This document shows, piece by piece, positions 33,155-34,573 of a stretch of DNA of 64,000 nt. Position 1 is the first letter of the stretch, and each line of letters begins with the position of its first letter. The translations under genes were made by a program, and so were the position numbers. The notes under the pieces are model-generated. The model was not told where the DNA came from. It saw only the letters and a list, made by a program, of their open reading frames with translations, and did no database searches. Source of the stretch: an uncultured Anaerolineaceae bacterium (GTDB taxonomy: Bacteria > Chloroflexota > Anaerolineae > Aggregatilineales > Phototrophicaceae); NCBI GenBank assembly GCA_964451095.1, contig CAYVGI010000003.1:19112-83111 (forward strand), read 5' to 3'.

Positions 33155-34573
33155 ATGAACTTTACCCGCGAAATTAACCGCTTGATGGCAGCAATGATGG
33201 CAGCGTTTACCGTTATGCTGCTCGTCGCCGCCTACTACGGCGTCGCTGGCAGCATCACCCTACTCCCCCGCGAGGACAACCCCCGCCTGGTCGAAGCGGA
33301 GCAGTCTATTTTGCGCGGTGGCATCTACGACCGTAACGGTGAACCGCTGGCGCAAACCACCGCTGGCGAGGGCGGCTTCGCAGAGCGCAGCTACATCAGC
33401 GAGGCAGCATACAGTGCGCTTGGTTACTACAGCTATCGCTACGGCACCAGCAATGCAGAAACAGCATTTGACGCGCAACTGAGCGGCGCAAACCTGCCCC
33501 CCACGCTTGACCAGCTTGTGTTGGGACGCCCACCACGCGGTGAGGACATCCAGCTTACGCTGGACATCGCCGTGCAAAGGCGTGTCTTCCGCGCCATGGA
33601 AGGCTACGACGGTGCCGCCGTCGTTATGACGGTGCCCAATGGGGAGCTGCTTGCGCTGGTGAGCCTGCCAACCTACGACCCCAACACCCTGGACGATGAC
33701 TGGGACACACTCATTGAAGCGCCCGGCAACCCGTTCTTCAACCGAGTGCTGCAAGGCAGCTATCAACCGGGCACGATGATGCAGCTACCCGTACTGTTAG
33801 ATGCGATCACACGCGGGCAATCGCTGAATGCCCAGTTCCCAAGCGGCGCATCCCCCGTGCAGCTTGACGACCTGACTTTAAGCTGTGTCGTCAGTCCCCC
33901 ACAAATTCAGCTCACACTGGCAGAAGCTTATGTATACGGTTGCCCAGCGCCGTTTGCCCAGCTTGTGTCCGTTCTCCACGCAGAGCGCTTCCAGGCGGAG
34001 CTTGACGTGCTGCGCCTGCAAAACCCACCCACCCTTGCGGGCTTCCTGCCAGAGCAGGACAGCGGCGGAGACGGAACCGACACACCCAACGTCCTCCTGA
34101 CCACAGCAAACATGCGAGAGAACGTGCTCGGGCAGGGCATGTTTAATCTATCCCCGATGGCGGTTAACGCCATGGTCGCGGCGGTCGCAAACGGCGGCAA
34201 CACCCCACAACCTCGCATCCTTGCCGGGACGAGACCCCAGGGCGCAACCGAGTGGATACCCAACCAACAGCGATTCGCCACCATCCCCTACACCACACCC
34301 CAGGCAGCAACGGCAACCCGCGACCTGATGAGCCAGTCTGTGCGGGTGGGCAACGCTAGCCAGATCACATGGAGCGGGCAGTCTGTGCGCGGGCAGGGGG
34401 CAATTGCCTACAGCGGGGAAAGCACATTAGTGTGGTTTACGGGCTTTGCGCGTTACACCAGTGGGGAGGCAGCGGTCGTCACGGTGATACTGGAGGATAC
34501 GGCGGACGTTGCAGCAGCAGCAACCGTCGCCAGGGAAGCGCTAAACGCTGCCAACATCGCCCTCACCCGCTGA
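33155..34573 (+). CDS. pbpA: class B penicillin-binding-protein homologue (PbpA/PBP2-like) lacking all three catalytic motifs
   Basis: Track ORF 32711..34573, trimmed to ATG 33155, 2 nt after the rodA stop. TM anchor, then PBP-dimer and transpeptidase fold signatures (AVVMTVPNGELLALVSLPTYDPN, NLSPMAVNAMVAAVANGG, LVWFTGFA). SxxK is replaced by TMMQ, SxN by GCP, and KTG by QGA. Confidence 0.85.
   Translation: MNFTREINRLMAAMMAAFTVMLLVAAYYGVAGSITLLPREDNPRLVEAEQSILRGGIYDRNGEPLAQTTAGEGGFAERSYISEAAYSALGYYSYRYGTSNAETAFDAQLSGANLPPTLDQLVLGRPPRGEDIQLTLDIAVQRRVFRAMEGYDGAAVVMTVPNGELLALVSLPTYDPNTLDDDWDTLIEAPGNPFFNRVLQGSYQPGTMMQLPVLLDAITRGQSLNAQFPSGASPVQLDDLTLSCVVSPPQIQLTLAEAYVYGCPAPFAQLVSVLHAERFQAELDVLRLQNPPTLAGFLPEQDSGGDGTDTPNVLLTTANMRENVLGQGMFNLSPMAVNAMVAAVANGGNTPQPRILAGTRPQGATEWIPNQQRFATIPYTTPQAATATRDLMSQSVRVGNASQITWSGQSVRGQGAIAYSGESTLVWFTGFARYTSGEAAVVTVILEDTADVAAAATVAREALNAANIALTR

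Follow-up and report, generated by a model that had tools for sequence, protein, structure and literature searches.

The window analysed here, a 64,000-nucleotide stretch of contig CAYVGI010000003.1 from an uncultured Anaerolineaceae bacterium (assembly GCA_964451095.1), carries a gene for a PbpA-type penicillin-binding protein of class B (bPBP) in which all three transpeptidase motifs have been replaced, directly behind the gene of a SEDS (FtsW/RodA-family) polymerase. In nearly every bacterium a SEDS-bPBP pair forms the core of cell-wall synthesis, and the bPBP is the classical target of beta-lactams. The window protein is a member of a clade-wide, ancient and fixed family of pseudo-transpeptidases that are orthologous to PbpA and obligately linked to an intact SEDS protein. 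The family has what characterizes a pseudoenzyme: the motifs are lost, the sequence is under purifying selection, and active orthologues are extant in the same synteny. In our view the protein probably serves its SEDS partner as an activator or scaffold, an obligate subunit without catalysis of its own, with cross-linking supplied in trans.

A penicillin-binding protein without transpeptidase motifs

The gene is an uninterrupted open reading frame (ORF) for 472 aa whose ATG lies 2 nt past the SEDS stop codon TAG (33150-33152), as a preliminary description of the sequence had stated, and the four landmark strings quoted there were all found in the translation. A Shine-Dalgarno-like hexamer, GAGGTG, is located 8 nt 5' of the ATG, within the end of the SEDS gene, and makes translational coupling from the SEDS gene to the bPBP gene plausible. 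Pfam recognizes two domains in the protein, the transpeptidase domain PF00905 over its full profile (E=2.3e-18, 66.9 bits against a cut-off of 22.1) and the PbpA-type pedestal/dimerization domain PF21922 (E=1.1e-7, 32.5 bits against a cut-off of 27). The NCBIfam equivalog TIGR03423 (pbp2_mrdA) gave only 124.4 bits, below its cut-off of 455, under which the active Chloroflexota relative P0231 also falls with 304 bits. The N-terminal transmembrane (TM) anchor is preceded by a basic cytoplasmic stretch (FTREINR), and the junction Y27-[WY]28 is kept in motif-less and active families alike.

The preliminary description had read the three motifs as TMMQ in place of SxxK, GCP in place of SxN and QGA in place of KTG; its coordinates proved exact, and its register was upheld by sequence search, family alignment and structural model. 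When the protein was compared with the PDB by phmmer, the top match was PbpA of Mycobacterium tuberculosis (Mtb; 3un7, E=5e-22), with TMMQ paired to STFK, GCP to SCN and QGA to KTG. Of the 289 sequences in a MAFFT alignment, 167 were relatives of the window protein (the 'dead' family), 121 were active proteins of PbpA type and one, P0257, was intermediate. At the motif columns of this alignment the residues S, K, S, N, K, T and G are each 100% conserved among the 121 active relatives, and counting motifs per sequence gave none in 167, all three in 121 and the single intermediate. The AlphaFold2 model of the window protein, built from a 77-sequence alignment (pLDDT 94.4, pTM 0.90), has T207 at the N-terminus of helix 206-219, GCP in the turn joining helices 255-261 and 265-273, and QGA within strand 411-420; in the model all three thus occupy the canonical sites of the motifs. 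Mtb PbpA was also the first PDB match by Foldseek (E ~1e-29, TM-score 0.75-0.81), followed by PbpA-type structures from Atopobium and Eggerthella. In none of the alignments made did a genuine SxxK/SxN/KTG triad fall in register.

The replacements extend beyond the motifs themselves. The equivalents of T213, N246, T417, H425 and P457, near-invariant in the active family, are lost as well, and the oxyanion and beta3 KTG(T) residues are gone in the dead family. With the catalytic Ser/Lys, Ser/Asn and Lys/Thr lost together with the active-site equivalents of H425, T213 and N246, the canonical mechanism leaves the protein no way to form an acyl-enzyme, whether on D-Ala-D-Ala stem peptides or on beta-lactams.

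Distribution and origin of the loss

These substitutions are not private to the window sequence. In its 120 nearest homologues, which range from 100% down to 41% identity and whose named members are Chloroflexota, Anaerolineae or Phototrophicaceae, the SxxK Lys is missing without exception, and the nucleophile position holds G (76), S (23), T (14) or A (6). The SxN site reads x-C-P, with Cys and Pro each in 120 of 120, and the KTG site reads [H/Q]-A-A, or H/Q/Y-A-A over the dead family as a whole. Family-wide, the SxxK columns contain G/S/T/A/L at the Ser site and Q/E at the Lys site, and the replacements stand in conserved contexts (YQPGxxLQTP, xCPxPF, GG[HQ]AALAYSG and WFxGF).

When one genome of each GTDB species was scanned, 258 species proved to have a relative, and we examined the best 80 loci, all of which come from Anaerolineae, Aggregatilineales, Phototrophicaceae or Ca. 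Flexifilum metagenome-assembled genomes (MAGs). The motifs were absent in 81 of 81 genomes, that is, the best 80 of the 258 plus the cultured Phototrophicus methaneseepsis, and the ORF was intact in 80 of these 81 species-level genomes, including the complete genome of the cultured strain. At one locus (L062, MAG contig CAZZAO010000026.1) the gene is split into the overlapping ORFs 8001-9212 and 9145-9471, which reflects either a frameshift error or a true pseudogene in that genome. In a profile search of 1.84 billion representatives clustered at 50% identity, ~140 of the best 150 matches were dead, and the first active proteins surfaced only at ~355 bits. The motif-less sequences form ~167 clusters from Aggregatilineales, Phototrophicales, Ardenticatenaceae and Promineifilaceae.

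A further search, with the distant dead protein P0264 as its starting point, recovered a deeper dead subfamily (loci L082 and L089), whose named members belong to Ardenticatenaceae, Ca. Promineifilaceae and Ca. Leptofilum. In its proteins the Ser of SxxK is replaced by Leu or Met (YQPG[LM]xxQPF) and SxN by xRCPGPM, the KTG beta3 strand is degenerate or partly deleted, and locus L082 shows MTAP-SEDS-PBP synteny (MTAP, S-methyl-5'-thioadenosine phosphorylase). The K->Q and N->P changes are common to both dead subfamilies, which suggests a single ancestral loss of the motifs. A neighbour-joining tree, unrooted and with an active set sampled around one query, parts active from dead sequences cleanly.

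In P0257 (460 aa), the only intermediate among the 289 aligned sequences, the nucleophile Ser is present but the Lys is replaced by Gln; S-C-N is intact, and H-H-G stands where KTG would be. The protein may show stepwise loss caught midway.

Purifying selection and shifted constraint

The transpeptidase-like domain is clearly maintained by purifying selection. Nei-Gojobori estimates for 13 close species pairs put dN/dS at 0.065-0.143 for the dead transpeptidase-like domain, similar to the 0.03-0.15 of the TM helix plus pedestal. Together with the conserved replacement residues, these values agree with the earlier suggestion of a maintained non-catalytic protein as opposed to a decaying pseudogene. 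Segment lengths of the transpeptidase domain match those of the active relatives, and nothing has been deleted from the fold.

What has changed is the distribution of constraint along the protein. In the dead family pedestal identity exceeds transpeptidase identity, whereas in the active relatives the opposite is true: mean pairwise identity was 0.435 (dead) and 0.482 (active) in the pedestal, as against 0.363 and 0.525 in the transpeptidase domain. When pairs were matched at pedestal identities of 0.4-0.5, transpeptidase identity was 0.36 in the dead family and 0.51 in the active relatives. Columns at least 80% conserved numbered 44 (dead) and 108 (active) in the transpeptidase domain. The constraint on the pedestal appears to be retained in the dead family, because the corresponding numbers there are 28 and 34, and R44, R54, G55, R78, G90, E102, G111, G129, D131, D137 and Q141 are common to both families.

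Within the relaxed domain some residues stand out. Cys244 and Cys263 are invariant, and the pair is also present in 120 of 120 members of the deeper subfamily. In Mtb PbpA, the Cys at the x of SxN is disulfide-bonded to the beta-hairpin region (PMC9974482). The invariance of the pair and its match to this disulfide point to a structural staple, a Cys244-Cys263 bond that was probably kept while its catalytic neighbours were replaced. W367, in the beta-hairpin loop, is Trp in 91% of the dead family and corresponds to no equally conserved residue in the active relatives. A family-specific insertion near this residue was considered and rejected, the anchor-to-anchor lengths being equal (38 versus 37 residues); the apparent insertion is an alignment effect and the Trp substitution is real. 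Further conserved replacements in the former active site are Q204 (0.93), P264 (0.93) and H/Q414.

The SEDS partner, natural fusions and orthology to PbpA

The SEDS protein encoded upstream is apparently functional, as the preliminary description had proposed, and probably coupled in translation to the dead PBP. It aligns over its full length to Pseudomonas aeruginosa FtsW and to the RodA proteins of Escherichia coli and Thermus thermophilus (E 1e-28 to 1e-32), and relative to P. aeruginosa FtsW (8bh1) it retains HSDFVF, with the catalytic Asp of HxDF, and QPSELLK (QPSE..K). In an alignment of 84 SEDS sequences (78 from orthologous loci, that of the window and five fusion N-termini), the catalytic Asp and QPSE..K were kept in all 82 full-length sequences, fusions included. 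NCBIfam scores of 248 bits for FtsW and 212 bits for RodA, both under their cut-offs, gave no decision between the two.

The partnership itself, also part of the preliminary description, is strongly supported by these intact residues, by gene order and by in-frame fusions. A SEDS gene lies directly upstream of the dead-PBP gene and co-oriented with it in 78 of the 80 loci. In addition, we found natural fusions of ~900 aa that combine PF01098, PF21922 and PF00905 in a single chain; P0213/P0269, P0242, P0249 and P0254 have dead motifs, P0227 has active ones, and P0233 and P0245 are partial SEDS-PBP fusions. P0269 (locus L083, 10001-12736) sits in FhaA-FhaB-SDR-MTAP synteny, which identifies it as the neighbouring SEDS and PBP genes joined in frame. 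By Rosetta-stone reasoning, such fusions imply that SEDS protein and dead PBP would form a 1:1 complex.

Gene order also settles the relationship of the dead protein to the active enzyme. Dead loci typically read peptidyl-prolyl isomerase (PPIase), FhaA, FhaB, (SDR), MTAP, SEDS, dead PBP, (PHP and a flippase-like TM protein, on the opposite strand), C39-like/TPR, MurJ and MBL, and the same order is found in the complete P. methaneseepsis genome. The active PbpA of other Chloroflexota occupies the same FhaA-FhaB-MTAP-SEDS-PbpA block (e.g. loci L087 and L088), which makes the dead protein its positional orthologue as opposed to an accessory paralogue. Hidden Markov models of the dead and the active family, run over the whole 64-kb window and over +/-8-10 kb around the gene in 88 loci, matched no second PBP domain, and Pfam scans of the other window ORFs detected no YkuD, VanW or other PBP domain.

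What the motif-less protein may do

Published SEDS polymerases need their bPBP, and from this we infer that the dead PBP activates its SEDS partner. The protein is the orthologue of the PbpA-type bPBP that pairs with RodA/FtsW-type SEDS proteins in Terrabacteria, and it has kept the membrane anchor, the pedestal and the whole transpeptidase fold with its structural disulfide. Co-translated with the intact SEDS protein, and in some lineages covalently fused to it, the dead PBP would bind SEDS through its TM helix and its pedestal, presumed to be the SEDS-contacting module, and would allosterically license glycan polymerization. The inert transpeptidase-like domain would serve as a scaffold and/or as a module that binds peptidoglycan or a partner, and cross-linking of the nascent strands would fall to another enzyme acting in trans: a further bPBP, a PBP of class A or an LD-transpeptidase of the Cys-based kind. 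VanW-type LD-transpeptidases are reported to be relatively common in Chloroflexota (PMC10980060).

More tentatively, and with less confidence than in the subunit role as such, we suggest that throughout a large group of filamentous Chloroflexota of Anaerolineae type the SEDS polymerase of the PbpA-type machinery, which we take to be the elongation machinery, runs with an obligate pseudo-PBP whose fold was repurposed, for example for docking to peptidoglycan or a partner, the machinery having given up DD-transpeptidation by its own bPBP for good in favour of a non-cognate cross-linker. Candidates for the latter are a YkuD or VanW Cys-based LD-transpeptidase, or even the neighbouring C39-like peptidase. 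If this is true, the pseudo-PBP SEDS synthase would be intrinsically blind to beta-lactams.

Several points weigh against the proposed role as an activating subunit. An omega of ~0.1 on the dead domain is not explained by a pure pedestal-only activator; such strong purifying selection on an inert domain means that the domain has a role of its own, for which scaffolding, peptidoglycan binding and partner binding are the obvious candidates. Ser or Thr occupies the nucleophile position in ~20-30% of the family, never with the SxxK Lys, and cryptic chemistry in these members is formally still conceivable. The neighbour-joining tree being unrooted, a single loss is deduced solely from the K->Q and N->P changes that the dead subfamilies share, and the AlphaFold model of the fusion P0213 is moderately confident (pLDDT 79, pTM 0.67). 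Finally, that another enzyme performs the cross-linking in trans is an assumption.

The low dN/dS of the dead domain, as low as that of the pedestal, is also what would be expected if the domain had been turned into a regulatory module or a sensor for some ligand that gates or localizes the SEDS protein, activation then not being the main selected function. What such a module binds could be stem peptides, muropeptides or a partner enzyme, and it might be tied to phospho-signalling through FhaA and FhaB, both conserved nearby; the conserved replacements at the former active site (Q204, P264, H/Q414 and, at 0.91, W367) and the retained disulfide between SxN loop and beta-hairpin fit this idea. 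However, FhaA and FhaB accompany active PbpA too and so are not specific to the dead form, and conserved transpeptidase columns are down by ~60%, more like relaxation than the shaping of a precise new site. We regard a sensor as unlikely to be the principal role, although it overlaps with the activating subunit, does not exclude it and may complement it. Appreciably less probable is that the protein is still an enzyme, using a non-canonical nucleophile (Thr207/Ser207 or Cys263) or carrying out hydrolase- or carboxypeptidase-like chemistry. The window protein does have Thr at the nucleophile position and almost a fifth of the near homologues have Ser, an invariant Cys lies within the former SxN, the KTG Lys is commonly replaced by His, and the pseudoenzyme literature cautions that catalytic residues can migrate (PMC10211241). 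Yet Gly at most of the near homologues' nucleophile sites and Leu or Met in the deeper subfamily leave no family-wide nucleophile at that position, and the SxxK Lys is missing throughout the nearest homologues. Cys263 is unlikely to be a free thiol, because its invariant partner Cys244 matches the known Mtb PbpA disulfide, and the oxyanion residues, the beta3 KTG(T) residues and H425 are gone too.

Tight linkage to the SEDS gene would also suit a negative regulator or decoy that occupies the SEDS protein and holds it inactive, or excludes an active bPBP, until some condition arises. Transpeptidase-dead bPBPs can be dominant-negative in model organisms. Against this, the dead protein is the positional orthologue of active PbpA and not an extra paralogue, no second PBP gene was found within +/-8-10 kb in the 88 loci, and a permanent covalent fusion of inhibitor to target is hard to rationalize; we judge a decoy to be about as improbable as residual catalysis, if not slightly more so. 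The split gene at L062 is what a decaying pseudogene would look like, but with the ORF intact nearly everywhere else, dN/dS of ~0.1, a confidently modelled fold and conserved replacement motifs, the readings as pseudogene, sequencing or assembly artefact, or private mutation are refuted by the comparative data, and we give them practically no weight.

Other features of the window

The features discussed are listed with their neighbours in Table 1. The C39-like/TPR gene is connected with the dead PBP by association only. Its catalytic Cys and His motifs, Q-x-W-N-N-C-G-P-A and W-[LI]-G-H-Y...G-Y-D-D, are present in nearly all of 63 aligned homologues; a PDB sequence search with its product matched only the TPR repeats. 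None of the three active-PbpA neighbourhoods that we looked at (L084, L087 and L088) contains the gene. Between it and the dead-PBP gene, two genes run on the opposite strand: a PHP-domain phosphoesterase gene, convergent with the PBP gene and overlapping its 3' end by 33 nt, and a gene for a flippase-like membrane protein. At the other end, a SurA-like PPIase heads the block directly 5' of FhaA; its long low-complexity linker is rich in Pro, Thr and Glu.

Further upstream, the window holds a large envelope-glycan cluster that encodes a pair of secreted DUF4397 proteins, of which one carries SH3 domains, and three membrane proteins of GT-C type (PMT_2, YfhO-like). It also encodes a Wzy_C protein resembling O-antigen ligases, transferases of the GT2 and GT4 families, and two enzymes of the GDP-mannose-dehydratase family. 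Wzy_C, sometimes with YfhO, is syntenic 5' of the FhaA block in 47 of the 80 loci.

Table 1. Positions of the dead PBP, its parts and its neighbours in the window; occurrence is given as the number of the 80 examined dead loci.
Feature	Position	Strand	Evidence and occurrence
Envelope-glycan cluster	8656..26019
SurA-like PPIase	27354..28847	+	59/80 loci
FhaA-like (FhaA_N + FHA)	28866..29696	+	PF12401, PF00498; 66/80 loci
FhaB-like membrane FHA protein	29693..30151	+	PF00498; 66/80 loci
MTAP	30956..31840	+	TIGR01694, 286 bits, above cut-off; 70/80 loci, upstream of SEDS
SEDS (FtsW/RodA-family) polymerase, 442 aa	31827..33152	+	PF01098, E=2.7e-77
Dead PbpA-type class B PBP homologue, 472 aa	33155..34573	+	PF21922 + PF00905; Mtb PbpA top PDB match by sequence and fold
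N-terminal TM anchor, ~residues 10-32	33182..33250	+	Hydrophobic LMAAMMAAFTVMLLVAAYYGVAG inside helix 3-35 of model
PbpA-type pedestal, residues 36-150	33260..33604	+	PF21922 at residues 54-130
Transpeptidase-fold domain without catalytic apparatus, residues 151-472	33605..34570	+	PF00905 at residues 153-463
SxxK remnant, T207-M-M-Q210	33773..33784	+	Alignment columns
Cys244	33884..33886	+	Invariant partner of Cys263 (33941-33943)
SxN remnant, G262-C263-P264	33938..33946	+	Alignment columns
W367	34253..34255	+	Alignment column
KTG remnant, Q414-G-A416, strand beta3	34394..34402	+	Alignment columns and strand 411-420 of model
PHP-domain phosphoesterase	34541..35266	-	Homologue just downstream of PBP on opposite strand in 64/80 loci
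Flippase-like/LPG_synthase_TM membrane protein	35298..36464	-	TIGR00374, PF03706; 36/80 loci
Membrane-anchored C39-like cysteine peptidase + TPR	36533..38053	+	PF13529 + TPR; 62/80 loci, between dead PBP and MurJ
MurJ lipid II flippase	38057..39757	+	TIGR01695, 256 bits, above cut-off; 57/80 loci

Implications

To our knowledge, whether catalysis or allosteric licensing is the essential contribution of a bPBP has been probed only with laboratory point mutants. The family described here amounts to a natural, ancient and clade-wide experiment on that question, in which the partner was kept, and sometimes fused, after every catalytic residue had been lost, and its diverse sequences allow the residues needed for the non-catalytic role to be read from conservation. 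The cultured P. methaneseepsis ZRK33 (complete genome CP062983.1), which grows as filaments 0.5-0.6 um wide with a visible wall layer (PMC8941918), makes the idea directly testable, and both it and the natural fusions are open to biochemical and structural work. The finding also prompts the question of what cross-links the SEDS-made glycan, and how the abundant filaments of wastewater, marine and soil habitats respond to beta-lactams. Meanwhile, databases currently label genes of the dead family 'penicillin-binding protein A', 'peptidoglycan glycosyltransferase' or 'transpeptidase domain-containing protein'; annotators should leave such genes out of any count of transpeptidases.

Comparison with known systems

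In actinobacteria, the operon order is fhaA-fhaB-pstP-rodA-pbpA-pknA-pknB. The window block has the FhaA-FhaB-...-SEDS-PbpA order in common with this cluster, a resemblance that fits Mtb PbpA as the best structural match, but it is without PstP and PknA/B and has MTAP inserted before SEDS. Mtb PbpA (Rv0016c; 3un7, 3lo7, 3upn) shares with the window protein both the architecture of TM anchor, PF21922 and PF00905 and the Cys-Cys link from SxN loop to beta-hairpin. In contrast, it has STFK, SCN and KTG where the window protein has TMMQ, GCP and QGA, and it forms acyl-enzymes with beta-lactams (complexes 3upn, 3upo and 3upp in the PDB). Closer at hand, the active PbpA proteins of Chloroflexota (e.g. 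P0231, P0376, P0349 and P0352) are 33-39% identical to the window protein, equal in length and domain boundaries, and carry the same conserved pedestal residues as the dead family, but they have S-x-x-K, S-[CVI]-N and K-T-G-[TS] in 120 of 120 cases, and the transpeptidase domain that is their most conserved part is the least conserved part of the dead proteins.

The separation of a structural or activating role from catalysis has precedents. FtsW polymerizes lipid II only with its bPBP, in a study that also tested the requirement for the bPBP TM segment (bioRxiv 10.1101/358663). Transpeptidase-dead PBP2B in Bacillus subtilis, according to a 2025 global survey of morphogenetic synthases (PMC12516126), and transpeptidase-dead SpoVD in Clostridioides difficile (PMC12713402) can still support function, provided that another bPBP supplies the activity. 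These engineered proteins and the FtsW-PBP reconstitutions show the same split as proposed here, but the engineered dead bPBPs are laboratory point mutants of naturally active enzymes.

Natural chimeras of FtsW/RodA/SpoVE, pedestal and transpeptidase have been treated in the survey as putative bifunctional class B synthases (Microlife 2025, PMC12516126); of our five full-length fusions, in contrast, four (P0213, P0242, P0249 and P0254) are dead and only P0227 is active. The passages of the survey that were consulted cover non-canonical architectures and chimeras and do not mention motif degeneration, and we found no description of a natural motif-less bPBP in full-text searches, whose coverage of subscription journals is thin. 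The SEDS-bPBP machine is a known one, whereas the natural and conserved catalytic death of its bPBP partner appears to be new: unlike the engineered mutants, it is fixed and clade-wide, affects all three motifs, and comes with relaxed constraint over the whole transpeptidase domain.

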